Source: a virus. Taken from it: DNA of 42,387 bases. Shown here piece by piece: positions 1-42,387 of the stretch; positions within the stretch are counted from its first letter, which is position 1; each line of letters starts with the position of its first letter. The notes beneath the pieces were generated by a model. That model was not told where the DNA came from and ran no database searches. It saw nothing but the letters and a program-made list of their open reading frames with translations. The stretch is taken from IMG/VR virus record IMGVR_UViG_3300038406_000091, positions 1-42,387 of that record; one strand, written 5' to 3'. Both the position numbers and the translations under genes were made by a program.

Positions 1-127
1 GTCGAGCAGTGTCTTGGCGCCCGTTTCCTTGACCAGTCGTTCGATTTCCTTGAGGGACGATTTGACGGAGAAGCCCTTGAACTTCCCCGCCTCGTGAAGC
101 GCCCTATACTCCTGACGATATTTCACG
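1..127. repeat. Terminal direct repeat, copy 1 (identical to 42261..42387); marks circular closure or terminal redundancy
   Basis: Read base by base: gtcgagcagtgtcttggcgcc...cctgacgatatttcacg occurs at both ends of the window. Confidence 0.95.
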
Positions 128-820
128 CTTGCGACGACCTTTGTAGTGGGTCATGTACTCGCCGAGGACCGATCTCGCGAAGACGTCCAGTTCTTCGAGG
201 GTCATCTCGCGCTTGACCTTGAAGAACGGCGACAAGTTGTTCCCGGAGGTGTTAACCCGCGCCCAATCGAATATTTCGCAGTCGTGCCAGCGTTCTAGGG
301 TCAGGAAAATTCCCTTCCGCAGGCAGTTGATGTAGCGGTCCAGGAATTCGGGAAAGTCTTTGTGCTCGGTATCGAACCCCAGAAACCCGGTTTCGGTGTA
401 GAACTTCGACCGGCCGAGGTATGACAGGGCCTTTCCGTCGAAAAGGCTCTCTAACCATTCTTCGGTGATGGGTTTGGTCGTTTCCACGTCGGCGTCCAGC
501 CAAAAAACCTTGCCTTTGTGGTCTTTCAGCACATCCCACTGGGCAAAAATCTTGCGGGTGAACTTCCAGGCGTTCTTGTTGTAGTCGTACCCACCGTCAA
601 CCAGGCCATTCGTGCCGGGAATCGACTTGAGGTAGGTGTAAAAGGCCGGAACAGGGCCGATCTCGAAGAAATTCCGGTATTCGATCTTCTCGTGCTCAAA
701 ATCCGGCGGGGATTCGTAGTAAACGACAAGTTTCCCGGGCCAGTATTTGACGAAAGACTCTAAACAATTGCGCCCGTACTCTTCGTAGCCGGACTTAGAG
801 AACGACGTGACGACGATCAT
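104..820 (-). CDS. Putative nucleotide-diphospho-sugar (GT-A type) glycosyltransferase
   Basis: 238 aa. Has the DxD-like motif 'FWLDADV'. ATG overlaps the upstream stop (ATGA). Its 3' end overlaps the GTG start of the methyltransferase gene across the junction. Confidence 0.5.
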   Translation of the reverse strand: MIVVTSFSKSGYEEYGRNCLESFVKYWPGKLVVYYESPPDFEHEKIEYRNFFEIGPVPAFYTYLKSIPGTNGLVDGGYDYNKNAWKFTRKIFAQWDVLKDHKGKVFWLDADVETTKPITEEWLESLFDGKALSYLGRSKFYTETGFLGFDTEHKDFPEFLDRYINCLRKGIFLTLERWHDCEIFDWARVNTSGNNLSPFFKVKREMTLEELDVFARSVLGEYMTHYKGRRKREISSGV

Positions 821-1407
821 TCTTGCTCTACGTCGTCTATCGACACGATCTGGGTGTCGTAAGTCTTCTCGATCGTCCGCAGAAGGACGTTTTCGGCCTT
901 CCAGTCGTGGAGAGAAGGACCAACCCCGGTTCGATGGATAGCGTCGTTCCGGGTAAATTCCACATCCGGGTTCAGCAGGGTGTCGAATCCCGCTAAAACG
1001 ATCAGCTCGGGCTCGTAGTAATGGGCTGCAATCGCAATTGCCGCGAGGCCGGTTGAGACGTTTTGGTGACTTGGCTCCAGTTCCCGGAACTTGCCGTTCC
1101 AGTGATTACAAAGATCGAGCGGGATCATGAAAGGAGCGCCCCGCTTTGCGACCACGTCGAAGGTTCTCACCTCGTCGTAATGGCCGTTTTTTGGGTAGAA
1201 CCAGTACTGTCCGGCGATCACGTTGAAAACGAGCCCAGGAACCTCGGTGGACATGCACAAGGCATCCGCGCGGGAGCCGTAATCCGCTGTTCCCAGAACG
1301 GAAGCACAGCCCTTTAAACGGACGACGATATCGAATTGGTCGATCTTCTCGCCCAGCTTCTTTCCCACGAGGGAGGGTCCGTGGCCTACAACACAAATTG
1401 CGCTCAT
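817..1407 (-). CDS. Sialyltransferase-like / Maf(DUF115)-like glycosyltransferase
   Basis: 196 aa. N-terminal 'ICVVGHGPSL...IDQFDIVVRLKG' resembles the GNGPSL...D(F/V)xRxN motif of GT42/GT29 sialyltransferases and motility-accessory-factor proteins. ATGA coupling at both ends. Confidence 0.45.
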   Translation of the reverse strand: MSAICVVGHGPSLVGKKLGEKIDQFDIVVRLKGCASVLGTADYGSRADALCMSTEVPGLVFNVIAGQYWFYPKNGHYDEVRTFDVVAKRGAPFMIPLDLCNHWNGKFRELEPSHQNVSTGLAAIAIAAHYYEPELIVLAGFDTLLNPDVEFTRNDAIHRTGVGPSLHDWKAENVLLRTIEKTYDTQIVSIDDVEQE

Positions 1408-1670
1408 GCGGGTCCTATTAGGTGCTCGATCAGTTCGATAATCGGCTTGATCTCTTTCCGGAGTTCGGGGAATCGCTCGAACACCCGGTGGAGTTGGAAG
1501 AACAGGGTTTGTAGGTCGTCAATCGCGTACTGCATGCCCCGCTCGGGGCTGACCAAGAGACCCTGAAGGTTTTCCACGGTCTTGCTCAGCCTGGGTTCTA
1601 ATTCGGGGTAGTTGACCATGGCCGCAGTCAGTCGCCCGATCAGCTCCGATACTTCGTCGTTAACGGACAT
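1404..1670 (-). CDS. Hypothetical helical protein inside the glycan cassette
   Basis: ORF track 1404..1676 begins at a GTG. An ATG at 1670 gives an 11-nt overlap with the upstream gene. Confidence 0.45.
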   Translation of the reverse strand: MSVNDEVSELIGRLTAAMVNYPELEPRLSKTVENLQGLLVSPERGMQYAIDDLQTLFFQLHRVFERFPELRKEIKPIIELIEHLIGPA

Positions 1671-2649
1671 GGACACTCCCGTAGGGGATCATGGGTCCGC
1701 CCGTGCCGTAGTACCAAAGGGAGTTGTTAACCTCGCCTGTGCCTTTCGGCGGGCGGATGACTAGACATTCTTTCCCAATCGCGCCGCAGACGTGGGACAC
1801 GGTTTGGGTAACGGTGACGACCCGATCCAAGGCGGCGACCAGGTTGAATTGGTCGTTTAGGTCTTCCAGGGGATCAAGACCCAGATCAACCACGCCCTCG
1901 GGGAGTTTTTCCTCCCATTTCCCATCCGGCTGTTTCAGGTATTGCAGGTTGATGTAGGTCGCGTCCTCGGTCATCAAGGACTCGGGGTCTACTCGTCCAT
2001 GCCTCGCTCGCCAGGCGATACCGATCTTCGGTTTGTCCCCGAGCTCGGAAAGTCTCTGTTTCCAGTACTCGACCCGTTGTGGGTCGGGTTTCAGGTACGG
2101 CTTTCTCGGGAAGTGGCTCGGGTGTCTTCGGTAGAACATCAGCAAATCACCCAAGGCGACGACCGCGTCTCCGTCCGTGTAGTCGGACAGGTTTTTTCTC
2201 GGAAGACACTCGATCCGAAAAGACCGCTCCATGATCGGGATCAGCCGGGGGTAGGTGTGAAAGACAACCGCCTTATGCCCCAGCCGAACGATCAACTCAG
2301 GGATACAGGAGGCAAACAAGATTTCATCGCCTATTCCCTGCTCTCCCAGGACCAGAAGTCTGTCTACCTTCTGCCCCATCCATTTCGGGAGGGGGTTGGC
2401 ATACCCATTCCACCCCTGGAAGGTAACGGACCAGTCGCTTCTGTATTCCCAGCCGTCGTAGTTGTCGAACCTTCCCAGTCGCATTCTTGCCGCGCAGAGG
2501 TTCCACCGGAAGGAGGGTGGGAATAGCCGGTAGTCGATCTTGCCGTGCTTCTTGAGAACCCTCTTGATGTCTCGCTTGAGGAAGCGCTTTTCCTCGGCGG
2601 TGCACTCTGACTGGTTTATGACCTCGCAGAGTTCTGCGTATTCACTCAA
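1660..2649 (-). CDS. GT9/GT41-like (GT-B fold) glycosyltransferase
   Basis: 329 aa. 'LLVLGEQGIGDEILFASCIPEL' and 'IGIAWRA' match the heptosyltransferase-like domain that often follows TPR repeats in protein or flagellin glycosyltransferases. The start codon is TTG and overlaps the stop of the 55-aa ORF upstream. Confidence 0.5.
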   Translation of the reverse strand: MSEYAELCEVINQSECTAEEKRFLKRDIKRVLKKHGKIDYRLFPPSFRWNLCAARMRLGRFDNYDGWEYRSDWSVTFQGWNGYANPLPKWMGQKVDRLLVLGEQGIGDEILFASCIPELIVRLGHKAVVFHTYPRLIPIMERSFRIECLPRKNLSDYTDGDAVVALGDLLMFYRRHPSHFPRKPYLKPDPQRVEYWKQRLSELGDKPKIGIAWRARHGRVDPESLMTEDATYINLQYLKQPDGKWEEKLPEGVVDLGLDPLEDLNDQFNLVAALDRVVTVTQTVSHVCGAIGKECLVIRPPKGTGEVNNSLWYYGTGGPMIPYGSVHVR

Positions 2650-2809
2650 TGGGAACCTCTTCCCACTCGTATTCCTTCTGTCCCTGCTTCCTAGGCAGGC
2701 TCTGGAGGAAGCGTACCGTCCCCACGGGTTTCCCCTGTTCGTACCATATAAGGCCGTGTAGGGGCTTGGGATGGCTTAAATCGGCCTTCTCGATAAGGAT
2801 GCGGATCAT
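2642..2809 (-). CDS. Small ORF (55 aa), first gene of the glycan cassette; not in the ORF track
   Basis: Hand translation: MIRILIEKADLSHPKPLHGLIWYEQGKPVGTVRFLQSLPRKQGQKEYEWEEVPIE. Its stop overlaps the TTG start of the next gene. No obvious SD. Confidence 0.35.
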   Translation of the reverse strand: MIRILIEKADLSHPKPLHGLIWYEQGKPVGTVRFLQSLPRKQGQKEYEWEEVPIE

Positions 2810-2968
2810 CGGCTTTGGGCTCGAAAAATGTGGATGTGACTATTGTCTAGACCTCGGGACCGGAAGGGGGGTCGTACCCCTGGCCCTGGGGATTTTCCAG
2901 GATTATTTGCCTATTTACTGGCACAAATCTGCCACAGTGTGCGGCTAAGTGCTTGATTGATATGGGCT

Positions 2969-3042
2969 GACTACCTGGTTAGATATCAGGTAGTCTGGTT
3001 TCGTTGAGTTTTGAGAGAGAGTGAGGGGGCGAGGGACTACCT
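2969..3042. repeat. Three copies of GACTACCT: a 9-bp inverted pair (2969..2977 / 2987..2995) plus a direct copy (3035..3042)
   Basis: Read directly: gactacctg-gttagatat-caggtagtc, then gactacct overlapping the stop of ORF 3041..3235. Lies in a 230-nt non-coding gap. Confidence 0.7.
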
Positions 3043-3235
3043 ATTCTGCCTTGCTCAGCCCATCAATCAATGCCGCTATCTGGAGCTCGTGTAACGCTGA
3101 CTGTGTGTTGTCCCTGGTGTCGATCACTACTACCCACTCTCCGTCGTAGTCATTGCGATGGAGTACGTAGTGACCGAGCGTCATTGTCTGGTCCATTGCG
3201 CTCACCACTTCTCCGGGTCTTGTATCTGTGACCAC
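3041..3235 (-). CDS. Hypothetical protein (the start may be the internal ATG at 3196)
   Basis: 64-aa ORF in the late operon. The internal Met at 3196 has GGAGAAG upstream and removes the 34-nt overlap. Confidence 0.45.
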   Translation of the reverse strand: MVTDTRPGEVVSAMDQTMTLGHYVLHRNDYDGEWVVVIDTRDNTQSALHELQIAALIDGLSKAE

Positions 3236-3393
3236 TCCACCTGCCGCAACCTACCATCACTGCCTTGGTAGTAGGCTACTGGTGATATGTGAACGACCTT
3301 ATCCAAGAGTCTGGCGTATAGCGCGTTCTTCTCCCCCTCGCTCATATCCTCCACCATCTGCATGTAGCTGCCGTACAGTCTGGGCTGACTCAC
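3202..3393 (-). CDS. Hypothetical protein
   Basis: 63-aa ORF. ATGA-type overlap with the upstream gene. Confidence 0.5.
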   Translation of the reverse strand: MSQPRLYGSYMQMVEDMSEGEKNALYARLLDKVVHISPVAYYQGSDGRLRQVEWSQIQDPEKW

Positions 3394-3764
3394 TGTAGCG
3401 TCTCCGGTGCTGTGTGCTCGGGCATGAACTTGGCCTTCAGGATGTCTATCATCTCCTTGGGCAGCACCTTGGCGAGCTGGGCTAACAGGGCTTGAGGGTC
3501 GCTGTCCTCAGTGATCTCGGTGATCTCTGCGCTACTCAGTACTGGCATGGTCCTGTCTAGGAGGACTTGGGCGGCCTTGATCTGTGTGGCGGTCATCTTG
3601 CCTGGCTTTCTTACTTCGCCGGTTTCTAAGTCTTTGATTTCATTATCTGGGTCTTCACAGAGTACGTGACTCTCCAAGCGAGCAACGATCTTCTTTGTGT
3701 TGATCGTGTCCCTTATCTTCTCCCTGGTCTTGTTGGTCTGCCAGTTGCGTTTGCGGGCTGCCAC
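3390..3764 (-). CDS. Possible terminase small subunit
   Basis: 124 aa. Basic N-terminus followed by 'TATQIKAAQVLLDRTMP', which resembles small-terminase/gp3-like proteins. GTG start overlaps the upstream TAG. Separated from terL only by small ORFs and the glycan cassette. Confidence 0.35.
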   Translation of the reverse strand: MAARKRNWQTNKTREKIRDTINTKKIVARLESHVLCEDPDNEIKDLETGEVRKPGKMTATQIKAAQVLLDRTMPVLSSAEITEITEDSDPQALLAQLAKVLPKEMIDILKAKFMPEHTAPETLQ

Positions 3765-4000
3765 TACAGGTACTCTCGCTGTGCGTTGATTAGCTTCTGT
3801 ACGGCATCAGGGCTGGCAGGTATGGCGAGTCCATCGGGGCCTTCTTGGAAGCCGTTGCTTTGTAGCCAGGTGGCCCAATCGGGGGCGGCTTGGCCTGATT
3901 CCTGTGCGGCCATGTTGGCCTTCGTATACATCTCGCGGAGCATCTTGGTAAGACTTGCCGGGCCGCCTGCCATCGGATTCATTTGTGGTGCGGGGTTCAT
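3764..4000 (-). CDS. Hypothetical protein
   Basis: 78-aa ORF, coupled to its neighbours. Confidence 0.5.
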   Translation of the reverse strand: MNPAPQMNPMAGGPASLTKMLREMYTKANMAAQESGQAAPDWATWLQSNGFQEGPDGLAIPASPDAVQKLINAQREYL

Positions 4001-4335
4001 CTGAATGATCTCTCGTATCGGAGGCCATAACGTCTTTGGCCGTCGGTGTCTTGGGCGTTGAAGCCTAGGTTTCCCCCCAGGAGCGGCATTGATCCGTTGA
4101 TCTGCCAGTCTCCTGAGTACTTAACTTGGGTGTCGAGGTTTATCCCGCCTACCGGGCCTCTCAAGCCTATCCCGCGGGCTCCCATTGTGGCGGTGTAGGG
4201 TTGGGTCTCGTATACAAGCTTGCCGCGCTTAAGGGCGATCTTGGGCGTTATCTGCCAATTGCCCAAACTACTCAGCCTGAACCGCTCCTGGGGTGGCGCC
4301 AGCTCCGGCAATTGGTCCTCGTGGAATGGCATCAT
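3997..4335 (-). CDS. Hypothetical protein
   Basis: 112-aa ORF. ATGA overlap at both ends. Confidence 0.5.
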   Translation of the reverse strand: MMPFHEDQLPELAPPQERFRLSSLGNWQITPKIALKRGKLVYETQPYTATMGARGIGLRGPVGGINLDTQVKYSGDWQINGSMPLLGGNLGFNAQDTDGQRRYGLRYERSFR

Positions 4336-4511
4336 CGGTATTCCGCGACAAGGCCGGTCGGCTGGGGCTCTCCACGCTCCACCACGTTGCCGTCTCGATC
4401 GTAAACGGTCTTCATGCCCATGCCGACGTACTTGGTGCCGTCAAACTCAAGCCAGGAGCTGACCTCTACGCGGCCATAGAGCTGTTTGGCGATGATGTTA
4501 AGTTCGTCCAT
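4332..4511 (-). CDS. Small ORF (59 aa), not in the ORF track
   Basis: Hand translation: MDELNIIAKQLYGRVEVSSWLEFDGTKYVGMGMKTVYDRDGNVVERGEPQPTGLVAEYR. ATGA overlap with the downstream gene and TGATG overlap upstream. Confidence 0.45.
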   Translation of the reverse strand: MDELNIIAKQLYGRVEVSSWLEFDGTKYVGMGMKTVYDRDGNVVERGEPQPTGLVAEYR

Positions 4512-4636
4512 CAGTGTGTCCCCGGTGCCGCCTCGATCTCTTCTTCCTCTTCCCCGATGAAGAAGCCGACAACGTTTACACCTTCGGGGATGTCGATTTG
4601 TAGCTCAGTGTCGTCGTCGAGTTGGATGAAGAGCAT
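4511..4636 (-). CDS. Small acidic ORF (41 aa), not in the ORF track
   Basis: Hand translation: MLFIQLDDDTELQIDIPEGVNVVGFFIGEEEEEIEAAPGTH. GGGAG lies within the 12-bp palindrome GGGAGATCTCCC directly upstream of the ATG. Confidence 0.35.
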   Translation of the reverse strand: MLFIQLDDDTELQIDIPEGVNVVGFFIGEEEEEIEAAPGTH

Positions 4637-4657
4637 GGGAGATCTCCCGTGGAAGGA

Positions 4658-4742
4658 TGGCAGGCGAACCGGAATCGAACCGATGTCACAGCTCGTTGTT
4701 TAACGGGGCCCCAGCTGTACTCTGCCACTAAGCTATCGCCTG
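4658..4742 (-). tRNA. tRNA-like gene with normal acceptor, D and T arms but an aberrant, expanded anticodon arm
   Basis: Minus strand: CAGGCGA-TA-GCTT-AGTGGCA-GAGT-A-CAGCT-[GGGGCCCCGTTAAACAACG]-AGCTG-TGAC-ATCGG-TTCGATT-CCGGT-TCGCCTG-CCA. The T-loop (GGTTCGATTCC), the D-loop GG and a 7-bp acceptor stem are canonical. The 'anticodon loop' is 19 nt instead of 7. Confidence 0.5.
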
Positions 4743-4812
4743 CATAAAGGATTTGGCCCCACGCCCTCAGTCCCTTCAATCCGGTTAGTGTGCGGAGGCG
4801 GGAACGTGGGAC

Positions 4813-4850
4813 CAAAACAGAAAAGGCCCGGCCAGTTTCCTGGTCGAGCC
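4813..4850 (-). terminator. Rho-independent terminator downstream of the T5orf172 gene
   Basis: Minus strand: GGCTCGACCAG-GAAA-CTGGCCGGGCC (11-bp stem with one mismatch and one G-U pair) followed by TTTTCTGTTTT. Confidence 0.75.
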
Positions 4851-4871
4851 TTGGTGATCTTGCGTTACTGA

Positions 4872-5354
4872 CTAGACGCCAGCCGCGATTAGCTTTTTAG
4901 CGATACCGGGTACGTCCGCCTTCTCAGCCAGCTTGATTATGGCCAGGACTTCGCCCTCCTTCCTGAACCATTCTCCCTTGACGCCATAGCTGGCTAGGTA
5001 GGCGTGCAGCTTTTCCTCTACCCAGGCCGGTGCCGCGAAAGCGGTTATAAGATCCACCGGAACCGGGATACCTTGGCGAAGCTGGGACATGCGCTTCGTC
5101 AGGTTCCCTGTCATACCAATCTTGACCGCCCGCAGCTCCTTACATTCCACGATGTAGACAGTGGTGCTGGAGTGGAGTTCGTTTACAAGGGATTCCACCT
5201 TTCGGTGGTACAGCTTGCCCTTTTGTTTTGGCTTGGGGAGGTGCTGGTCGCAGTGCTTTTGCCCGGGCTCGGGATCTTTGAGGCAACCCGCCCGAATGCA
5301 GATGCGTGGGAGCGCATCGGTTAGGACACGATGAACCCTAGTTATTTGTGCCAC
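4872..5354 (-). CDS. T5orf172/MUG113-domain protein (GIY-YIG superfamily) with an N-terminal Cys/His cluster
   Basis: 160 aa. 'VYIVECKELRAVKIGMTGNLTKRMSQLRQG...GEWF' fits the T5orf172 pattern. The N-terminus has C-x4-C-x11-C-x2-H. GTG start. Confidence 0.6.
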   Translation of the reverse strand: MAQITRVHRVLTDALPRICIRAGCLKDPEPGQKHCDQHLPKPKQKGKLYHRKVESLVNELHSSTTVYIVECKELRAVKIGMTGNLTKRMSQLRQGIPVPVDLITAFAAPAWVEEKLHAYLASYGVKGEWFRKEGEVLAIIKLAEKADVPGIAKKLIAAGV

Positions 5355-5383
5355 AACCGATGCATACTTTTTTCATCGTGGTA

Positions 5384-5413
5384 ATTCTACCATGGGAATG
5401 GCTCACAAGTCAA
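5384..5413 (-). promoter_or_regulatory. Near-consensus sigma70-type promoter with extended -10 (candidate late promoter)
   Basis: Minus strand: TTGACT-18 nt-(TGG)TAGAAT. The -35 begins 3 nt after the stop codon of ORF 5417..5995. Confidence 0.65.
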
Positions 5414-5416
5414 GTC

Positions 5417-5995
5417 TCAGCTCGCTTCTTTTAGGGCGTCGGCCAAACTGGGGAAATCGCCCTCCCCGCGCAGCTGCCTCACCACTATAGAGACGTTGGC
5501 CACCCCTTCACTATCAAAGAGCTTCACCCGATCCAGGCAAACATCCTTCTTCTTGTCGTAGTCCCTGATCCAATTCTTGGTCGGCATTCCCATGTGGTGG
5601 GCATACGCATCCACCGGCATATCCTTCATGCGCCTGAGCCTCAGGCGGTAATCATCCACGGCGCACTTGCACAGGGCCTTGTGGCGCTCTATGGGGTGAA
5701 AGTCGATGAAGTTGTCCAGGTACACGTCGGAGGCCACGGTTTCGAGGTCGGATTGGTTGTTCTCTTCCCCGTAGGCGTATCTGAGCCAAGCCCGCACGGG
5801 CGCCCGTTGTGCGTTGATGGCGGCCAGAATCCAACCCACCTCCAGGAAATCCACGGTTGCCCAGGCGTTGGCCTTGAAGCTCCGCTCAATACGGCACTGA
5901 TAGCGCATCCATTCGAGCATACCCATTTCCGTCCTTTGTTGGTCGGCCCAGGTCAGGGCGTCGTGTATGCACTGGCGGACGGCGCCTATTTTCAT
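5417..5995 (-). CDS. Hypothetical protein; possible Q-like late antiterminator, mainly by position
   Basis: 192 aa. Last gene of the early operon and immediately followed by a strong promoter and later a terminator, which is the lambdoid Q-pR'-tR' layout. Sequence similarity to Q families is only a vague impression ('AWLRYAYGEE'). Confidence 0.35.
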   Translation of the reverse strand: MKIGAVRQCIHDALTWADQQRTEMGMLEWMRYQCRIERSFKANAWATVDFLEVGWILAAINAQRAPVRAWLRYAYGEENNQSDLETVASDVYLDNFIDFHPIERHKALCKCAVDDYRLRLRRMKDMPVDAYAHHMGMPTKNWIRDYDKKKDVCLDRVKLFDSEGVANVSIVVRQLRGEGDFPSLADALKEAS

Positions 5996-6015
5996 TTATT
6001 GGCTCTCCTGTTTGT

Positions 6016-20152: not shown

Positions 20153-20497
20153 ATGACCCCTCGCGGAATCAGATATAAGGACGCGCCTAAGTACGTTGGC
20201 CGGGATAAGGCCACATTCGACCGCGACTTCCGTCCGTATCTGACTGAAAGGAAAGACGGAAGGAAAGTGATTTTCGACAGACTTGAACTGGACCGCCTGT
20301 TTGAAGAGGATATGAAGCGGCGCGGACGCCCAGGGAGGAACACATGGGACGACCAAAGCTCCCCGAAGGGCTCACATGGCGTGAGAGGCCGGACGGGACG
20401 TACTACGAAGACATCTACTTCAACAAGCAATACCGAGGGAGACGTATTCGCGGCAGCGCGGGAACGGCTGAAGCGAAGGAAGCAGAAAGGCGGCTGA
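20153..20497 (+). CDS. Excisionase-like DNA-binding protein
   Basis: 'IRYKDAPKYVGRDKATFDRDFRPYL...FDRLELDRLF' has an Xis/AlpA-like feel and sits immediately 5' of int. The last ~150 nt overlap int in another frame and are low-complexity. Confidence 0.4.
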   Translation: MTPRGIRYKDAPKYVGRDKATFDRDFRPYLTERKDGRKVIFDRLELDRLFEEDMKRRGRPGRNTWDDQSSPKGSHGVRGRTGRTTKTSTSTSNTEGDVFAAARERLKRRKQKGG

Positions 20498-21417
20498 GGC
20501 AGAAGCTCCAGGAGATCGACAACGCCGAGATTTACGGCCAAAGACCTGATCGGACGTTTGCGGTCGCGGCGGCGAAGTTCCTGGACGACTACCCCGAGGC
20601 CGCACGGTATGAGATCCACCTGGCAAGCCTGATGCCGTATATCGGCAGTCTCTGGCTAAGGCAGGTCAGCAAGCAAAGCCTCAAGCCGTGGATAGAGGCC
20701 CGGTACAAGGAGAAGGTTTCCGCAAGGACGATCAACTGGGGCCTGGAGGCAGTACGCCGGATTCTCCGGTTAGCTGCCTACTACTGGCGCGATGAGTACG
20801 GGCTTTCGTGGATCGACAACGCCCCGATTATCGAGCTGGAGAAGGGGCCGAAGCTGCTGCCCTACCCGCTTTCATGGGAGCAGCAGGACGCGCTCTTTGC
20901 CAGGCTGACCGACCGGATGCGGGATATGTGCCTCTTCGCCGTCAATACCGGCCTGCGGGATCAGGGTGTTGTCCGACTGCGGTGGGACTGGGAGACGGAC
21001 GCGGGGATCGGAGAAACGGTCTTTGTCGTTCCGGGTTCCAGTACTAAGAACGGCAAGACGCATTATGTCGTGCTGAACTCGGAGGCCCGAAGGGTGATTG
21101 AGCGATACCGGGGCAAGGACGATGGCTTTGTGTTCGGGGAGCCCAAGGACACGGCGACCCTGACCAACCGTTCGTGGCAGCTGGCCTGGGCCACCACGAT
21201 AGGCAAGGTACCGGGCTACCTGAAAGGAGTCCACAACCTGCGGCACACGTTCGGCAAGAGACTGCGGGACGCCGGAGTAGACGAACGGGACGTTCAAGAC
21301 CTGCTCCACCACATGCCCAAGACCGTGACCCGGCATTACTCACAGCCGGAGTTGAGGAAGCTGCGGGAGTGTGTGGAGCGGATAGTGCGTAAACCTTTGT
21401 TGAGGGCGGTGGGATGA
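20344..21417 (+). CDS. int: Tyrosine recombinase (phage integrase)
   Basis: 357 aa. 'NTGLRDQGVVRLRW', 'HNLRHTFGKRLRDAGV', 'LLHH...VTRHYS' supply the R..HxxR..Y catalytic signature. Confidence 0.9.
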   Translation: MGRPKLPEGLTWRERPDGTYYEDIYFNKQYRGRRIRGSAGTAEAKEAERRLRQKLQEIDNAEIYGQRPDRTFAVAAAKFLDDYPEAARYEIHLASLMPYIGSLWLRQVSKQSLKPWIEARYKEKVSARTINWGLEAVRRILRLAAYYWRDEYGLSWIDNAPIIELEKGPKLLPYPLSWEQQDALFARLTDRMRDMCLFAVNTGLRDQGVVRLRWDWETDAGIGETVFVVPGSSTKNGKTHYVVLNSEARRVIERYRGKDDGFVFGEPKDTATLTNRSWQLAWATTIGKVPGYLKGVHNLRHTFGKRLRDAGVDERDVQDLLHHMPKTVTRHYSQPELRKLRECVERIVRKPLLRAVG

Positions 21418-35781: not shown

Positions 35782-35985
35782 TTACTCCTGTTTGATTTGA
35801 AAGAACGCTAAAGCCTTGTCGAACCCCTCCTGCGCGGCCGAGTTGTATTTCCATTCGTCGGTATTGTCCTGACGAGGATCGAACGTCGGTATCACAGGGC
35901 GAAGCGCGAGCAGGTCTTGGGCGAGTTGTTCAAAAAACGGATGGCTGTGCAGGATGAGGATGGCGTCGGCGTATTTACTCGCCAT
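35782..35985 (-). CDS. Hypothetical protein
   Basis: 67-aa ORF between portal and scaffold. Confidence 0.45.
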   Translation of the reverse strand: MASKYADAILILHSHPFFEQLAQDLLALRPVIPTFDPRQDNTDEWKYNSAAQEGFDKALAFFQIKQE

Positions 35986-37903
35986 CGGGTTTCCTCATCT
36001 TCGATTCGGCTTCGGCGATCTTGAGGTTTGTCTTGATCGTGTCGAGTTCGGCCTGAATCTGGGCCTTGAAGTTGGCCAGTTCGGCTTGGTATTGGGTCTT
36101 CATCTGGGCTTCGGTGACCTTGGCGTCATTCACGGCCGCTTGAATCGCTACTTTCTTCTCAAGCTCCGCAATGGTCTCCTCGTGTTCCTTCATCGCCTCC
36201 TCAAACTCGGAGGCGATTTGTTGCTTGAGGACTTCCGTCTCGTCGTCGGGGATGTTCAGCCACCGCTCGGGGTTCTTGACTCCGGCGTCTTGGTACATCT
36301 CCTTGATGATTTCGACGGGCTTGAGCAGACCGGCAAAAAGCGGGTTGCCGGAGGCAAAGGCTGTAACGGCCGTGGCTTTCTGTGCCCTTTCCTCTTCTCC
36401 CAAGACTCCGCGTGCACCGACGATGTCGAAATGCACGTTCGGCGGAAGCTCTTGTTGCGCCATCCACATGAAATCCGGCGCGTCCATCTCGGGGTTGTAG
36501 AAGCTGTACCGGTCGAGCTGAGACTTGTTGATCTCGTGTTGCATGTAGAGGAACGTCTTGAGCGAGAATTCGAGCTTGTCGACGAAATCGACCACACGAA
36601 CCTCGCCTCTTGCAGACTGCTGACGGATCTCGGTCGCTGTCTTGTCGGCGGTATCTCCCCCACCCGCCCGCGAAGCGTCAACGCTCGTCCCCTGGCGGAG
36701 CTGGTCGAGGGCGGACTGGAGACCCTGAAGGGCGTAGTTCGGATCGCCCACCTCGATGACTTCGTAACGGGCGGTTCCCTTCGTCGCCCCCTTCCACCCC
36801 GGCGCGATCACCGGCCCGCCGTTGGCGATAAATTGCGGGTCGTTGCCGTCGTACAGGATCGGGGGTTCAGTCCGAAGCGCGACGGCATCGAGGTACTTGT
36901 TCGCCAGAACCGATGCCATCTTGTGAATCGGCGACAGCTTGATCAGCGGACTGACGTAGTACGGATCGCGAACGTCGAGTCGTTCGTAGCCGTTGTAGAT
37001 GATCGGCGAGAACGGAAGCGAGTTGGGCGCGTAATAGACGATAACGTCGTTGGCCAGGATAACTTTGGAGTTGGGTAGCAGAATGTCCCCATCTCCCCGG
37101 TTTATGGCGATGTCGCCGAAATACCGCGTCAGGCGAACGTCTTTGGTCGTAACGTCTTTGTTCTTATTCTCTTGCTTCGGGATCTTCTGGAGCTGCGCCG
37201 GCATCCATCCCGAACCGTTGGCGGCGAGCTTCAGTTGGTGCAGCGGAATGAATTCCTCGATGATCATCGAGCCGCTGTAAAACATGTTTGTCCCGATCAC
37301 AGACGGCGACGGATCGGGGTAGCAGTTCCACATTGAATGGGGAACCCATACCGGGGCGGCGACGTTCTTGATCCCGGCCCCTTGAACCAGCATCATGGAT
37401 TCTTGGCGGGCCTCGGCGACGAAAGAGCCGTGGTGCAAAGCTTCTTTAACCGACAACTCCATGCGGGCCTTGAAGCCGAAGTCCGCGTGCTGTTGCGCCA
37501 TCATGGCCCGAAGTTTCCCGTCCTCGAACTCTTGGGCCTTCTGGTCGTGCTGGTTTTGACCCGTTTCCGGACTCATCGCCGGGGGAAGTTCGACGTGCGC
37601 CTCGAACCATGCGCGGGTCGTCGGGAAAATAAGCCGGCGAACGTCGGCGGTGATGATCTCCGAAGCTCTCGCTAACTCCCCAAGCTCGATGGTGTTGTGC
37701 CAGTCGTTCTTGACCGCGTTTCCAGAGGAGTCGAACGACTCCATCGGCTTCATCGAGACCTGTCTGTCGACTTCCTTCCAGACGGCCTCATGCCATTTGC
37801 GGAACTGGTCGGTCTTGCGCTTTTGCAGTTCGTTTTTGACGTACTCGGCAACCTTTTCCCAGTCTTTGTCTGAGATGCGGCGCTTCTTGATGTCGTCTAC
37901 CAA
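35975..37903 (-). CDS. Portal protein
   Basis: 642 aa. Immediately downstream of terL (7-nt overlap). Apparent TTG start. C-terminal charged coiled region. Confidence 0.7.
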   Translation of the reverse strand: MVDDIKKRRISDKDWEKVAEYVKNELQKRKTDQFRKWHEAVWKEVDRQVSMKPMESFDSSGNAVKNDWHNTIELGELARASEIITADVRRLIFPTTRAWFEAHVELPPAMSPETGQNQHDQKAQEFEDGKLRAMMAQQHADFGFKARMELSVKEALHHGSFVAEARQESMMLVQGAGIKNVAAPVWVPHSMWNCYPDPSPSVIGTNMFYSGSMIIEEFIPLHQLKLAANGSGWMPAQLQKIPKQENKNKDVTTKDVRLTRYFGDIAINRGDGDILLPNSKVILANDVIVYYAPNSLPFSPIIYNGYERLDVRDPYYVSPLIKLSPIHKMASVLANKYLDAVALRTEPPILYDGNDPQFIANGGPVIAPGWKGATKGTARYEVIEVGDPNYALQGLQSALDQLRQGTSVDASRAGGGDTADKTATEIRQQSARGEVRVVDFVDKLEFSLKTFLYMQHEINKSQLDRYSFYNPEMDAPDFMWMAQQELPPNVHFDIVGARGVLGEEERAQKATAVTAFASGNPLFAGLLKPVEIIKEMYQDAGVKNPERWLNIPDDETEVLKQQIASEFEEAMKEHEETIAELEKKVAIQAAVNDAKVTEAQMKTQYQAELANFKAQIQAELDTIKTNLKIAEAESKMRKPDGE

Positions 37904-39333
37904 TTCTTTATTCCCGCCCTAATGGGTTGTTGGTGGGTGCGAATGACCTTGGTTTGGGCATGTCGTCGGAACATGACCCCGTAACGGGTCGCGGACAGGA
38001 AGTCGTCGTTTAGCGGAACGATCTTTCCGTCCTTGCGGTGGTACATGCGGAACTCTTCAAAAAACGGCTTGACGGTGGAGAAGACCTTGAATCGGCCTGT
38101 CTCCATCATCTCCAGCATCTGGAAAACGCCCGGCTCCACGGCATAACCGCCCTTCCCCTCCTCTTCTCCCATCGCCGGAGGATTGGTGAAGTGGGTGTGC
38201 CACATGTTCACGCCGTGCTCTTTGTAATGTTCCGCGAGAGTCTTTCCCGACTTCGGGTCGTGCTTCATGCCGTCATGCGGCCACGAACACGGAATCCAGT
38301 CGCCTTTTGCCTTGATGGCGGCGGCGTGAATGGGAATGAGGGTTCGAGACTCTCGGTAGCCGTCGTAGACGTAGACGACATCGTTTTCCCGATCCCACGC
38401 AAGAAAGGCGCAGGCAAAGGGATGATCCCAACCAAAATCGATGCCGTTGATCCGTGCGAAGTGCGGCGGAATCTCGAACGGGTCGATTGTTATTTGCTCT
38501 TCCGAGACAGGGAAAACCCGTCCCGAGCCCATCATCGGTTCGCCTTTCGACCGCATCGCCCTTTCGTGGGCGGGGATGCCGGCTAAGGCGAGTTCCCGTT
38601 TCTCCGGCGTCATGTGCGGCGCGTCGTCCCATGCGGCACGGATAAGGGCCTGCCCTAACTGAATGTCGTTCAGGAACCCCGCGACGACTTCGGTAATGCC
38701 TTCTTCGGGGGTGAAGGTGAGTAGACCAACCCCGTTGGTGGCGAACGTCCCTCGGACCATCTGCGACCAGATTTCCGCTGGGGGTTCTTCGTCGCCCCAA
38801 AAGCCTCCGGTAAGACGAGACCCCATGAACTTCTTCGGGCCCTGCTCGTAGGCTCTAAAGACGACCTTCGACCAACCCCCCGAAACATGCTTGACCATGA
38901 CCGAGTCGTAAGCGTTGGGGACGCCCGGTTTCCGGATCTTGTCGCCGATGCACTCCAGCGGGATGGTTCCCGTTCCTAGCGCCTTCTCGTCTACGGGCTC
39001 GCCGAACAAGTCTTTCTGACAACGATCACGAGTCGTCTCGTTCGTTGTCGAGGCAACCAGCCATTCCGTGGGGTGGTTGAATCGTGTTCCTTCCCACCAG
39101 GCCGGGTATTTCCCGGTTGTGTGAATGGCGACTTCGTGCGCGCCGGCATAGGTCTTGCCGATTTGGTTCGCACACATCAATGCCCTTTGACGGGCCGGTT
39201 TGTCGGTCTTGTGCCCCGGCGCGTTGTGAAAGCGCTTTTGATAGTCGTAAGGGGCGTAGTAGTCGAGTTTGTGGGTGTTCTTGTACTTCTCTAGCTGCGC
39301 GATGATGCCTGCGGCGTCAGCGAGCTTACTCAT
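37897..39333 (-). CDS. terL: Terminase large subunit
   Basis: 478 aa. Walker-A-like 'CANQIGKTYAG', 'WGDEEP' Walker B region, and a C-terminal RNaseH-like nuclease part ('INGIDFGWDHPFA'). Confidence 0.88.
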   Translation of the reverse strand: MSKLADAAGIIAQLEKYKNTHKLDYYAPYDYQKRFHNAPGHKTDKPARQRALMCANQIGKTYAGAHEVAIHTTGKYPAWWEGTRFNHPTEWLVASTTNETTRDRCQKDLFGEPVDEKALGTGTIPLECIGDKIRKPGVPNAYDSVMVKHVSGGWSKVVFRAYEQGPKKFMGSRLTGGFWGDEEPPAEIWSQMVRGTFATNGVGLLTFTPEEGITEVVAGFLNDIQLGQALIRAAWDDAPHMTPEKRELALAGIPAHERAMRSKGEPMMGSGRVFPVSEEQITIDPFEIPPHFARINGIDFGWDHPFACAFLAWDRENDVVYVYDGYRESRTLIPIHAAAIKAKGDWIPCSWPHDGMKHDPKSGKTLAEHYKEHGVNMWHTHFTNPPAMGEEEGKGGYAVEPGVFQMLEMMETGRFKVFSTVKPFFEEFRMYHRKDGKIVPLNDDFLSATRYGVMFRRHAQTKVIRTHQQPIRAGIKNW

Positions 39334-40006
39334 TCTTGATGAAGGTCATTAACGTGAACTCTTTCCACCATTCGTGGTGGTGTTCACAGTGCGCGTACTG
39401 TTTGAAGTACGGCCCGCCCGTCGTGTAGTGGATCAGGGACGGGTTCGTGGTCTTGTCGTACCCCACCAACTTGTTCCAGTGGTTCGGCAGCTCGCCGATT
39501 TCTTCGTCTTGCAGCCAGCGGAACTGGTGAAGGTCCAAACCATCCGCCGTGTTCACATAGTCCGGCGTCAAGGTCTTACAACGGGCGTTGTTGAACAGGA
39601 TTACGGACGACCAGTTCTTGCGGCCGTACTGGGTCTGGACGTTGCCGAGGTACTTGGTCTCTTCCGGCGGGGTGTAGTTGTGCTTCACCACACGAACCGC
39701 GTATTTGTCATCCCGCCACGCCCACAGCTTGGCGATGTCGTCTGTCACGACCATGTCGCAGTCCATGAAGATGGACCAGCCCTCGAACCCCGACATCCAG
39801 GGAACCAGGAAACGCGAAAACGAGAAATCGTTACTCTGCAACGGGTGACGGTCGCGGGTCAGAATGCCCCTAAGAGAACTCAAGGCAACCGGCGTGATCG
39901 AGACCGGGATACTTGAGCGGGTCTGGATCGAGTGCGCCAGGGTGTAGAGTGTCCCCGCCTCTACCGGGTCGTAACCGATGAAAACTCGGATCACAGAATG
40001 CTCCAA
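39326..40006 (-). CDS. GT8-like glycosyltransferase
   Basis: 226 aa. 'FSFSRFLVPWMSGFEGWSIFMDCDMVVTDDIAKLW' has the DxD motif in a GT8 context. 8-nt overlap with terL. Confidence 0.6.
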   Translation of the reverse strand: MEHSVIRVFIGYDPVEAGTLYTLAHSIQTRSSIPVSITPVALSSLRGILTRDRHPLQSNDFSFSRFLVPWMSGFEGWSIFMDCDMVVTDDIAKLWAWRDDKYAVRVVKHNYTPPEETKYLGNVQTQYGRKNWSSVILFNNARCKTLTPDYVNTADGLDLHQFRWLQDEEIGELPNHWNKLVGYDKTTNPSLIHYTTGGPYFKQYAHCEHHHEWWKEFTLMTFIKNE

Positions 40007-40995
40007 TCAATGGGCAGATGATGGTTGCCGATGTAGATGCCGTTCGTGTGGACGTAATCGGCATTTGGCAGGGGGCCGGCTTCGTAGTCGTAATGTTTTA
40101 TCGACGCGGAACGAACGAAGTTTCCGGCGACGATGGGGCGGTGTTCGACGCCCTTTGCCGTCAGTTCCTGCTTCACCTCTTCGATGTCGTCGGAGAGGAT
40201 GGCGAAGGCGAACCAGGAGGACTTGCCAACCTCTTTCTGGATGCGCCAGCCTTTGCGTTTGGCGACCTCTTTGAAGCCTTCCGCGTTCTCTCGTCGCTGT
40301 TCGACGAACTTCGGCAGCTTCTTTAGCTGTTCGATGCCGATAGCGGCTTGCATCTCGATGGGACGAACGTTGTAGCCGGGGTAGATGAATTCATACGGCC
40401 CGACCTTGGCGTTTAGAACGTTGTCTTTCGGTAGGTGTCGCGTCCACCCGTGGGAGCGAAGGCACAACAACATCTGGTAGAAATACTCGTCGTCCGTGGT
40501 AACTAATCCCCCCTCCATGGTCTGGATGTGGTGGGAAAAGAACGTCGAATGAGACGCCATGACCCCGAACGAACCTGTTTTTCTGCCCTCGTACTCGGCG
40601 CCCATGGACTCGCAGTTGTCTTCCAGAAACCCGGTGGGGTTGGGGTTTCCGAGAAGGTTGACTGCGAAGTCTGTCGGCGCGTTCAGCGTGTCGAGGTCGA
40701 CATCCATAAAGCGAAGATGCCAGCCGTACTGTTGGAGTGGGCTGAATGATGTCGACCAGGAAACGGCGGGAACCGTTATTGATCCGGCTCCGTGCCTCAG
40801 GGTGTAGGCGGCCACCATGAGAAGATTGGCGCTCGACCCCGAGTTGCAGGCGATGCAGTATTTCGTCCCGCAGTAGTCGGCGTAGGCTTTCTCGAACTCC
40901 GAGACGCGTTCGCCCATCGTGTAGATCCCGGAGTCGATAACCCGGTGGATGGCTTCTATTTCCTCCGGTCCCCAGGTGCTAGACGCTAAGCGCAT
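39991..40995 (-). CDS. colD: GDP-4-keto-6-deoxy-D-mannose 3-dehydratase (ColD-type DegT-family PLP enzyme)
   Basis: 334 aa. Blocks 'LASSTW', '[15 protein letters not shown]', 'NLLGNPN', '[10 protein letters not shown]', '[12 protein letters not shown]', '[10 protein letters not shown]', '[23 protein letters not shown]', 'SSWFAF', 'RPIVAGNF' match E. coli ColD as I remember it. That includes His-His where aminotransferases carry the Schiff-base Lys. Confidence 0.75.
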
Positions 40996-41899
40996 GGTCG
41001 ATCATCTCGCCGATCATGGATTGGAACGTGTGCTTCGGCTCCCAACCGAGCTTGGTCTTGGCCTTTGTTGCATCGCCGATAAGACAATCCACATCGGCGG
41101 GGCGATAAAAGGCCTTGTCCGTCTTGACGTAGGGGGACCAGTCTTGAATGCCGACGTAACCGAAGGCGGCATCAAGAAGGTCGCGGATGCTTCTGGTTTC
41201 GCCGGTCGCCAGTACAAAGTCGTCCGGCATGTCTTGTTGAAGCATGAGCCACATGCCGTAGACGAAGTCTTCGGCGTGGCCCCAGTCTCGCTTGGCGTCC
41301 AGGTTTCCGAGCGTGATATGCGATCTTTTCCCCTGCACGATCTCCGCGACTCCGTCACAGACCTTCCGGGTAACGAAGTCCTTCCCTCTTAGCGGGGATT
41401 CGTGGTTGAAGAGGATTCCGTTACAGGCAAAGAGCCCGTAGGACTCGCGGTAATTCACCGTCAGCCAGTAAGACGCGAGCTTTGCCGCCCCGTACGGACT
41501 CCGGGGATAGAACGTCGTCTTCTCGCTCTGTGGCGGGGGCGAGTTGCCGAACAGCTCAGACGTGGACGCCTGATAGAACCTGGAATGCGTGTGTTTCACC
41601 GCCTCCAGGATGTTCAGCGTCCCCAGAGCGTTGATCTCGAACGTCGTCCGGGGGATCTTGAAAGATTCTCCGACGTGGGACATCGCCGCGAGGTTGTACA
41701 CCTCGTCGGGATTGATCTTCTTGATGATGTTTCCTATCCCAGGATCGGTAACGTCGCCCTCGATGACGTTCACGTCTGGGACCTGCTTCGGTTGGGAGGT
41801 TCGTCGTACCAACCCATAGACCTCGTACCCCTTGGAAAGGAGTAATTTGGACAAATAGTGTCCGTCCTGGCCTGTGAGGCCAGTTATGAATGCGCGCAT
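40979..41899 (-). CDS. gmd: GDP-mannose 4,6-dehydratase
   Basis: 306 aa. '[12 protein letters not shown]', '[10 protein letters not shown]', 'SPYGAAKL', '[17 protein letters not shown]', '[13 protein letters not shown]' are canonical Gmd/SDR motifs. Confidence 0.93.
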
Positions 41900-41903
41900 T
41901 TAG

Positions 41904-42386
41904 TTAGTCGCGGAAGGTTAGAGAGACAAGAATGTCTTTGGTGGGAAGTTTCTCCCTCCACCAAGACTCGGGCTTTACAGTGACATGGACGTTGGTGCCG
42001 TCCTTGAAAAACTTCTTCGCCGGCAGGGTCGATATCGACAGGACGACGAACTTATTCGCGTAACCGAAGATTTCGGAGAGAACCCCGTCCAATTCCTCTT
42101 CGGGAACGTGTTCCAGAACATCGGTGCAAATCACCCCGTCAAACGTCCCCAGAGGCTTGGTGTCGAGACCCTTAACACCGGGGTCGTACAGGGCGGGGAG
42201 AACCCCCCAACGCTTGTGGTACTGTTTCTCGGTGTACTGGAGTCCCTTTCCACAGCCGTAGTCGAGCAGTGTCTTGGCGCCCGTTTCCTTGACCAGTCGT
42301 TCGATTTCCTTGAGGGACGATTTGACGGAGAAGCCCTTGAACTTCCCCGCCTCGTGAAGCGCCCTATACTCCTGACGATATTTCAC
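41904..42386 (-). CDS. Class I SAM-dependent methyltransferase
   Basis: 160 aa. 'TLLDYGCGKG' motif I and 'FDGVICTDVLEHV'. The GTG start lies inside the terminal repeat and overlaps the end of ORF 104..820 by 23 nt once the ends are joined. Confidence 0.7.
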   Translation of the reverse strand: MKYRQEYRALHEAGKFKGFSVKSSLKEIERLVKETGAKTLLDYGCGKGLQYTEKQYHKRWGVLPALYDPGVKGLDTKPLGTFDGVICTDVLEHVPEEELDGVLSEIFGYANKFVVLSISTLPAKKFFKDGTNVHVTVKPESWWREKLPTKDILVSLTFRD

Positions 42387-42387
42387 G
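42261..42387. repeat. Terminal direct repeat, copy 2 (identical to 1..127)
   Basis: Read base by base against 1..127. Confidence 0.95.

Follow-up and report, generated by a model that had tools for sequence, protein, structure and literature searches.

Why does a phage place a set of glycan-building enzymes among the genes that package its DNA? The question is raised by nine minus-strand open reading frames (ORFs) of the IMG/VR virus record IMGVR_UViG_3300038406_000091, whose entire 42,387 nt were analysed (hereafter, the window). Lying between a small-terminase (TerS) candidate and the large-terminase gene terL, they include genes for the sugar-nucleotide enzymes Gmd and ColD, an S-adenosylmethionine (SAM)-dependent methyltransferase and four distinct glycosyltransferase-like proteins. 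We tentatively favour, as the best explanation, a cytoplasmic system, expressed late, that glycosylates virion proteins. The cassette shares one overlapping gene string with terL and the portal gene and has no membrane or export partner in the block. It also occupies a fixed site, with diversifying content, in a clade of phages with many hosts, and a second, independent association with a capsid gene is found in podovirus MW202512.1. A further hint comes from protein-directed relatives of its GT-B glycosyltransferase: the protein O-heptosyltransferase TibC by structure, and fusions to tetratricopeptide repeats (TPR) resembling the flagellin glycosyltransferase FlmG by homology.

All nine ORFs were found where a first-pass annotation, made from the sequence alone, had placed them. 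In transcription order, the block begins with orf55 (2642..2809; 55 aa) and continues with GTB329 (1660..2649), a GT-B protein of GT9/TibC-like fold; orf90 (1404..1676; 90 aa); ST196 (817..1407; 196 aa), a GT29-like 'mini-sialyltransferase'; GTA238 (104..820), a retaining-type GT-A protein with a DxD motif; MT160 (41904..42386; 160 aa), a class I SAM-dependent methyltransferase; Gmd (40979..41899; 306 aa), a GDP-mannose 4,6-dehydratase; ColD (39991..40995; 334 aa), a GDP-4-keto-6-deoxy-D-mannose 3-dehydratase of the pyridoxal/pyridoxamine phosphate (PLP/PMP) type; and GT8_226 (39326..40006), a GT8-like retaining GT-A protein whose gene overlaps terL (37897..39333), which is itself followed by the portal gene (35975..37903), all on the minus strand. 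Only the start of orf90 differed: it had been read as 88 aa from an ATG at 1670, which is indeed in frame, but the program-called ORF begins at a GTG at 1676. Successive genes overlap by 8 nt (orf55/GT-B), 17 nt (GT-B/orf90), 4 nt (orf90/ST and ST/GT-A), 23 nt (GT-A/MT), 17 nt (Gmd/ColD), 16 nt (ColD/GT8), 8 nt (GT8/terL) and 7 nt (terL/portal), with a spacer of 4 nt between MT and Gmd. With neighbouring genes from orf55 to portal either overlapping by 4–23 nt or separated by 4 nt, the translational coupling proposed earlier is borne out.

The block runs across the ends of the record. Positions 1..127 and 42261..42387 are identical over 127 bp; the window is a circular assembly of 42,260 bp with 57.6% GC. 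Identical ends of 127 bp are typical of assembler k-mer overlap, and the true molecule is either a circle of 42,260 bp or circularly permuted. Because the ends are identical, MT160 directly follows the GT-A gene: its GTG start (42386, equivalent to 126) lies within the 23-nt overlap with the 3′ end of that gene, and the in-frame stop that lies upstream of it was verified after circularisation. The same phage is present in a Logan assembly as a 42,269-bp contig.

Membrane-helix-like segments are missing from all nine proteins (maximum 19-residue Kyte-Doolittle hydropathy ≤1.34), and neither Pfam searches nor inspection of the block revealed Wzx, Wzy, Gtr-type or acyltransferase-3 partners in the window's cassette. 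The identities first proposed for Gmd, ColD, the methyltransferase and the four glycosyltransferase-like proteins hold at family or fold level. Gmd matches PF16363 (E 7e-118, residues 4–299) and scores 390 bits against TIGR01472, below the cut-off of 415 because the protein has 306 aa and the model 342 positions. Its translation contains GLTGQDG, which we take to be the GxxGxxG NADP site, as well as STSELFG and YGAAK, presumably carrying the S/T-E…YxxxK catalytic residues of Gmd. MT160 matches PF13489 (E 3.7e-7), PF08241 (E 2e-4) and phrog_24759 (E 2.6e-26).

The PLP enzyme matches Escherichia coli O55 ColD (PDB 2gms/3gr9) at E 1.5e-93, compared with 3e-25 for perosamine synthase and 8e-25 for E1. 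Its S-H-H motif aligns with S-H-H of 2gms, S-N-H of the H188N variant (3b8x) and S-K-H of the H188K variant (2r0t), and these residues (S154-H155-H156) are invariant in nine ColD relatives. Sequence comparison thus gives a solid prediction of ColD rather than an aminotransferase, with the catalytic His188 kept in place of the Schiff-base Lys. Synthesis of GDP-perosamine by Gmd and Per was considered and ruled out, as the residue is His, not Lys, and the ColD match is better by ~70 orders of magnitude. The window's ColD is nevertheless the shortest of its family (334 aa vs about 345–390), and two deletions that no relative shares, one of 14 aa and one of 12 aa, fall between residues 105 and 125. 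The deleted residues are kept, at least in part, by all eight aligned relatives and by E. coli ColD, whereas the cofactor-site residues LEDNCES beside the deletions are retained.

Among the transferases, GTB329 and GTA238 have no PDB match by sequence or profile search and were placed by structure prediction alone. The AlphaFold2 (AF2) model of GTB329 (predicted local distance difference test, pLDDT, 94) has a GT-B fold, and its top Foldseek matches are 1psw (E 1e-5), 3tov and TibC (4rap/4rb4), with probability 1.0 and a template-modelling (TM) score of ~0.45. Nearest are the GT9 heptosyltransferases WaaF and TibC, followed by the GDP-fucose transferases FUT8 and FUT1; in BFVD, viral TPR and GT9 proteins match, and a protein of the chlorovirus PBCV-1 is a weak structural match only. 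Neither GTB329 nor any of its 120 closest homologues matches PF01075 or another Pfam family. In place of a TPR domain, GTB329 has two N-terminal helices (H2-12 and H18-35), and homology to bacterial proteins starts at about residue 45. GTA238 (AF2 pLDDT 94) is modelled as a retaining-type GT-A fold resembling GT6 and GT8, with Foldseek matches of ~1e-7 to the LARGE1 xylosyltransferase domain, BoGT6a, alpha-3GalT, XXYLT1 and PaToxG (probability 1.0 and TM 0.5–0.6 for the first four). Neither it nor its relatives match a Pfam family, yet K90, D109, D111, R137, E143, D180 and H225 are invariant among them, D109xD111 being the DxD motif.

The other two transferases could be placed in families, with limits. 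Residues 6–54 of ST196 (sialylmotif L) match PF00777 at 27.2 bits (cut-off 23), as do 12 of 13 relatives (best 1e-10), and a PDB profile search returned ST6Gal1, ST3Gal1 and ST8Sia3 at E ~1e-3 over motif L only. With 196 aa against ~270 aa for a GT29 domain, the protein does not align past the CMP-sugar-binding motif L; its invariant HxNVSTG and HDWxxE resemble sialylmotifs S and VS by eye only. GT8_226 falls below the cut-off of PF01501 (19.2 bits, E 1e-3, vs 24.3), although 20 of 26 family members match that model (best 6e-9). It matches phrog_28018 (E 1e-47) and, weakly, the GT8 domain of WbbM (profile search, E 0.02), and its D82xD84 and C-terminal H193 are invariant. The two small ORFs have no family match in Pfam, PHROGs or NCBIfam, but both recur: orf55 has a 57-aa counterpart at the same position in the closest relative (L235; loci other than the window are cited by such numbers), and proteins with 30–41% identity to orf90 occupy the same place, between the GT-B and ST-like genes, in many relatives. 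In Maf-2 flagellin-glycosylation systems that lack TPR, a small helical-bundle protein, GlfM, is the specificity factor (10.1101/2023.12.03.569772), and by analogy orf90 might possibly be a specificity adaptor in a GlfM-like role.

The first-pass annotation knew of no described phage system with this composition and location. The cassette is not a one-off, however, and is better described as a conserved yet hypervariable island across a clade of uncultivated phages. Relatives of ColD occur on 108 IMG/VR contigs, and ~25 of these share full synteny, in the order GT-B, orf90, ST, GT-A, (MT), Gmd, ColD, GT8, terL, portal and capsid, with 45–79% identity. To count the clade from terL rather than from ColD, we took those distinct viral loci in which terL and portal both have homologues and the upstream sequence reaches 5 kb or more. 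All 20 such loci carry a GTB329 homologue before terL; ST196 is found in 14, GTA238 and Gmd in 12 each, ColD and GT8_226 in 11 each, and MT160 in 5. The GC content of the clade spans 0.40–0.62, indicating diverse hosts. Such clade-wide conservation rules out the cassette as a recent moron, and its position is not the usual one for morons or seroconversion genes, lying far from the integrase gene (20344..21417; ~18 kb from the nearest cassette gene).

Around this constant core, tailoring genes are exchanged between close relatives. L235, whose GT-B is 80% identical to that of the window, carries genes for Gmd, a Methyltransf_24 protein and a radical-SAM/SPASM protein where the window has MT160, Gmd and ColD. 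Other relatives carry 2-oxoglutarate (2OG) oxygenase-like proteins, a nucleotidyltransferase-cupin, GT2, GT9, FkbM or an NDP-hexose C-methyltransferase. In many relatives the radical-SAM and SPASM protein, of 312–319 aa, is encoded immediately before terL or before the GT8-like gene (L001:6182-7132, L002:7563-8501, L004:6631-7590, L235:7053-7994). A partial island had already been deposited in GenBank under MW202713.1, where it is auto-annotated, apparently without published analysis: upstream of terL, this record has a PLP enzyme, a methyltransferase, a GTA238 homologue and a glycosyltransferase auto-annotated as 'tibC'.

The flanks of the island are unequally secure. The identity of terL follows from a relative's orthologue, which carries PF03237/PF17289, and from GenBank matches annotated as large terminase. 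The upstream flank (3390..3764, minus strand) had been called TerS, an assignment that we could not substantiate: Pfam, PHROGs, NCBIfam and a profile search of the PDB gave no match, and no source puts a name to any homologue. This candidate precedes the island in L005, L010, L018, L019 and L020, and lies inside it, between ST196 and GTA238, in L003, L004 and L006. In the latter three, it has shifted into the middle of the island together with its upstream 78-aa partner, orf78 (e.g. L004:2667-3213), suggesting that the putative packaging genes and the glycan genes form, and recombine as, one unit.

The first-pass annotation held that the cassette has no promoter of its own, and a consensus scan of the gap upstream of orf55 (2810..3040; 231 nt) gives this weak support, with no sigma-70-like site and no minus-strand terminator. 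No other non-coding stretch of any size interrupts the late gene string, and scans of the gap found no Rfam family and no tRNA. It is conserved at nucleotide level in L235, however, a hairpin with an 11-bp stem (2969..2995) and a GGGGTACGACCCC stem-loop included, and may therefore be regulatory; it could serve in late regulation or as a packaging (pac) site. The gap is absent from L019 and L020, the GT-B gene following the TerS candidate by ~50–120 nt, and with almost no spacer there an island-specific promoter is not a general feature. Further upstream, a 160-aa Cys-rich ORF (4872..5354, minus strand) matches only PHROGs of unknown function and is preceded by the sole sigma-70-like site within positions 1..6000 (5413..5384). 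Its counterpart in relatives sits downstream of RusA, and it may be a late-gene regulator or antiterminator for the whole string.

Relatives outside the clade suggest what the GT-B protein might act upon. Bacterial homologues of GTB329 are the C-terminal domains of TPR proteins of 530–1300 aa, whose genes form tandem arrays of up to eight paralogues interleaved with homologues of GT8_226 (56–63% identical) and MT160 (40–44%). Such arrays were seen in Proteobacteria, Planctomycetes, Marinimicrobia and Nitrospira (L083-L160; e.g. L101, L117, L128, L152), and look like an uncharacterised multi-enzyme modification system. One locus (L090:1792-9246) is a single ORF of 2,484 aa with four domains of TPR-GT-B type. 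A TPR-sulfotransferase lies beside the array in Phenylobacterium and at L143. The architecture recalls FlmG, a 596-aa TPR and GT-B flagellin O-glycosyltransferase in which the TPR domain binds the acceptor and the GT-B domain selects the donor (PMC7591256; 10.1101/2022.03.25.485807). A flagellin gene lies within 10 kb in 6 of 78 bacterial loci (0.6–1.8 expected), and at L125 a 589-aa TPR-GT-B gene is divergent from the adjacent flagellin gene. No phage locus that we examined contains a flagellin gene. In the unrelated podovirus MW202512.1, genes for a TPR-GT-B protein, an FkbM methyltransferase and a GT8_226 homologue lie directly downstream of the major capsid gene.

On the explanation that we favour, Gmd would convert host GDP-mannose to GDP-4-keto-6-deoxymannose, from which ColD would remove the 3-OH to give GDP-4-keto-3,6-dideoxymannose. 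GTB329 would attach the first sugar to a protein acceptor, a role suggested because it is the sole component found in every clade member and its bacterial homologues are FlmG-like TPR fusions. The remaining transferases could then extend a short oligosaccharide including a 3,6-dideoxyhexose, once reduced by a host enzyme of Fcl/ColC type, and possibly a CMP-activated ulosonic acid such as Kdo, and MT160 may methylate the glycan. The likeliest acceptor would be one or more virion proteins (capsid, decoration or tail/fibre). In that case a 'virion glycotype' would be particular to each phage lineage, and diversifying selection acting on the virion surface would account for the exchange of tailoring enzymes among close relatives. 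There is precedent in mycobacteriophages, whose own transferases, according to a passage in PMC12363180 that cites Freeman et al. 2023, add sugars to capsid and tail-tube proteins. A more specific form is possible, though doubtful: that the clade as a whole carries out cytoplasmic protein O-glycosylation from genes between terS and terL, with a TPR-less FlmG-like GT-B initiating on capsid or tail proteins, orf90 perhaps serving as a GlfM-like adaptor, and swappable tailoring enzymes defining a lineage 'virion serotype', in the window a methylated 3,6-dideoxyhexose oligosaccharide resembling O-antigen.

Several observations weigh against virion glycosylation. FlmG binds its acceptor through a TPR domain that the phage GT-B does not have, and 72 of the 78 bacterial TPR-GT-B arrays do not lie beside flagellin genes. 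In two T4-like phages, DLP6 and Pelagibacter phage Mosig, GT8_226 and methyltransferase genes (with a sulfotransferase and other glycosyltransferases) are found outside structural modules. The pathway is also incomplete: a tblastn search of the window with the GDP-fucose-synthase/ColC-like reductase encoded by L019 (7ll6, E 4.5e-81) found no reductase of this type, so that the encoded pathway ends at GDP-4-keto-3,6-dideoxymannose unless a host enzyme completes it. Given its two deletions, ColD could be a minimal functional core or a partly disabled enzyme, and its activity should not be taken for granted. Furthermore, we infer late co-transcription with terL from gene arrangement. Finally, soluble glycosyltransferases also build undecaprenyl-linked O-units at the membrane, and the lack of membrane proteins therefore does not exclude an envelope glycan.

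This last point leads to the most serious rival, which we regard as somewhat less likely: that the cassette remodels the host surface, altering an envelope glycan (O-antigen, capsule or an exopolysaccharide unit on undecaprenyl phosphate) or flagellin, pilin or S-layer protein, and thereby blocks superinfection or the re-adsorption of progeny to debris by way of the host's initiating transferase, flippase and ligase. Colitose-type 3,6-dideoxyhexoses are, by textbook account, classically O-antigen sugars, and the best ColD match is to E. coli O55; O-antigen glycosyltransferases are, moreover, usually soluble or peripheral and so compatible with the island's proteins, yet no partner of GtrA/B/C, acyltransferase-3, Wzx or Wzy type accompanies them here. 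The integrase, which marks the phage as temperate, suits this reading, but the island stands away from the int/att or tail-spike position of conversion genes and is coupled to terL and portal, and envelope changes made only late in lytic growth would have little time to take effect. The conserved 231-nt stretch could, for its part, hold an independent promoter. The bacterial GT-B, GT8 and methyltransferase homologues form chromosomal clusters, some beside flagellin genes, and the modules of the T4-like phages outside structural regions likewise fit a surface target; in contrast, occupation of the same site in 20 of 20 clade members despite differing host GC would be unusual for serotype-specific conversion genes.

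Far less probable than either is that the island is decaying or selfish cargo, partly inactive genes acquired from hosts with no role in the phage life cycle. A pathway without its own reductase, a ColD with two unique deletions and content that differs among close relatives could all be read in this way, but all nine ORFs remain intact and overlap one another, relatives at 45–80% identity keep the catalytic residues without change, and both AF2 models (GTB329 and GTA238) are confident. An island that takes up ~15% of a 42-kb genome is, furthermore, kept in 20 of 20 clade members. Anti-restriction glycosylation of the phage's DNA ahead of or during packaging, which the adjacency to packaging genes, the hypervariable tailoring content that we infer to be typical of anti-restriction loci too, and the GT-B fold of the textbook DNA glucosyltransferases might suggest, is the least credible and is rejected because no base-modifying gene (hydroxymethylase/thymidylate-synthase-like enzyme, DpdA or other) was found among the ten largest non-structural proteins, to which the scan was confined, while the phage is predicted to be temperate, its DNA being replicated as prophage, GT8, GT29 and GT9-like enzymes and a 3,6-dideoxyhexose donor are without precedent on DNA, and the TPR fusions of the bacterial homologues point to protein partners. 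What probability remains falls to other or unknown explanations.

Among the ten non-structural proteins scanned, only a tyrosine integrase, a DnaB helicase and an HNH endonuclease were recognised, and from its integrase the phage is predicted to be temperate. The nearest GenBank relative, MW202713.1 (capsid 55% identical), is an uncultivated temperate podovirus with an integrase, a cro/repressor pair and an antiterminator. Searches of the structural proteins and upstream small ORFs against PHROGs returned almost no matches, and virion proteins could therefore be typed only as far as similarities to capsid, portal and terL allow. The only hint of a host is that the related contig L082 was binned in a metagenome-assembled genome of Gammaproteobacteria. 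Two further features were seen in relatives. In L001 (8207-9052), L017 and L196 (L197 being the same virus), terL carries an in-frame insertion of ~280 aa after the Walker A lysine, with intein-like boundaries (…NQVGK|C…VVHN|T…); terL of the window (ANQIGKTYAG) is without it. Relatives also have a second variable island of 1.9–3.4 kb between the portal gene and orf67, a small ORF before the scaffold gene (L001:12240-14117, L004:11189-14405, L015:16339-19044, L025:7397-10406), of which the window has none; in L001 and L017 it encodes a 467-aa GDSL/SGNH hydrolase, and its other proteins have no Pfam match.

Virus-encoded glycosylation as such is already known from chloroviruses and mycobacteriophages, and the chemistry of ColD and Gmd is textbook knowledge. 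In the literature on phage ColD or colitose, on phage Gmd as an auxiliary gene and on glycan genes beside terminase, however, we found no description of this island. Across that literature and annotated phage records, and apart from auto-annotation that passes without comment, we found no earlier account of a conserved yet hypervariable glycan island between a TerS candidate and terL in temperate podoviruses, nor one of a 3,6-dideoxyhexose branch in a phage, a GT29-like enzyme in a bacterial virus or a TPR-less FlmG-like anchor transferase. If virion glycosylation is correct, this would be the first such system described for phages of Gram-negative hosts, and would add a second, virus-borne setting in which glycans diversify, alongside the O-antigens and flagellin glycans of bacteria. 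With the glycan on the particle, virions of Gram-negative phages would wear lineage-specific coats of self-made rare sugars, with a bearing on adsorption, on persistence in water and sediments, on escape from grazers, antibodies and capsid-sensing bacterial immunity, and on how sugar-metabolism genes are read as 'auxiliary metabolic genes' in metagenomes. Whatever the acceptor, the island offers a natural collection of small, soluble enzymes (a 306-aa Gmd, a 334-aa ColD, a 196-aa GT29-like protein and a TPR-less GT-B), its GT-B gene before terL is a genomic marker for an abundant uncultivated phage clade, and the locus points to uncharacterised tandem TPR-glycosyltransferase arrays in bacteria.

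How, then, does the island compare with known systems? Seroconversion modules (gtrABC of P22 and SfV, oac of Sf6) comprise integral membrane proteins encoded beside int/att; the prophage expresses them, and they add just one residue. They share with the island the presence of glycan-modifying genes in a temperate podovirus, but the island is without membrane components and lies ~18 kb from the integrase. In the GDP-L-colitose pathway of E. coli O55/O111 and Yersinia (ManB/ManC, Gmd, ColD and ColC), Gmd and ColD have clear orthologues here; in contrast, the window is without ColC, ManB/ManC, Wzx, Wzy and WaaL, and its genes belong to a phage late operon, not an O-antigen cluster. The likeness to FlmG is one of architecture: the bacterial GTB329 homologues share TPR with a C-terminal GT-B domain and a similar size (589 vs 596 aa), and some are flagellin-adjacent. 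ST196 has a nucleotide-sugar motif of GT29/GT42 type as does Maf, and orf90 stands in cis like GlfM. Unlike FlmG and Maf/GlfM, however, the phage GT-B has no TPR domain and there are no Pse or Leg biosynthesis genes.

Two viral systems come closer. The chlorovirus PBCV-1 encodes Gmd, GMER and glycosyltransferases for its capsid protein Vp54. As proposed here, it uses its own Gmd and transferases to make, in the cytoplasm, a methylated, deoxyhexose-rich capsid glycan; it differs in being a eukaryotic giant virus without ColD or a 3,6-dideoxy branch, whose genes are scattered rather than set in a packaging operon. Mycobacteriophage virion glycosylation is not known to draw on more than host nucleotide sugars and a couple of transferases. 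In Che8, Corndog and Myrna, as here, cytoplasmic glycosyltransferases are encoded by the phage, and theirs decorate capsid and tail-tube proteins, as far as the passage cited above reports (PMC12363180). The presumed benefit would in both cases be felt at the particle surface, although mycobacteriophages infect Actinobacteria and virion glycosylation has been demonstrated there, whereas here it is proposed from genes. Unlike the mycobacteriophages, the island described here adds tailoring by Gmd and ColD, transferases of four types and a methyltransferase, and its genes are fixed between a TerS candidate and terL while remaining hypervariable across a clade of temperate podoviruses.

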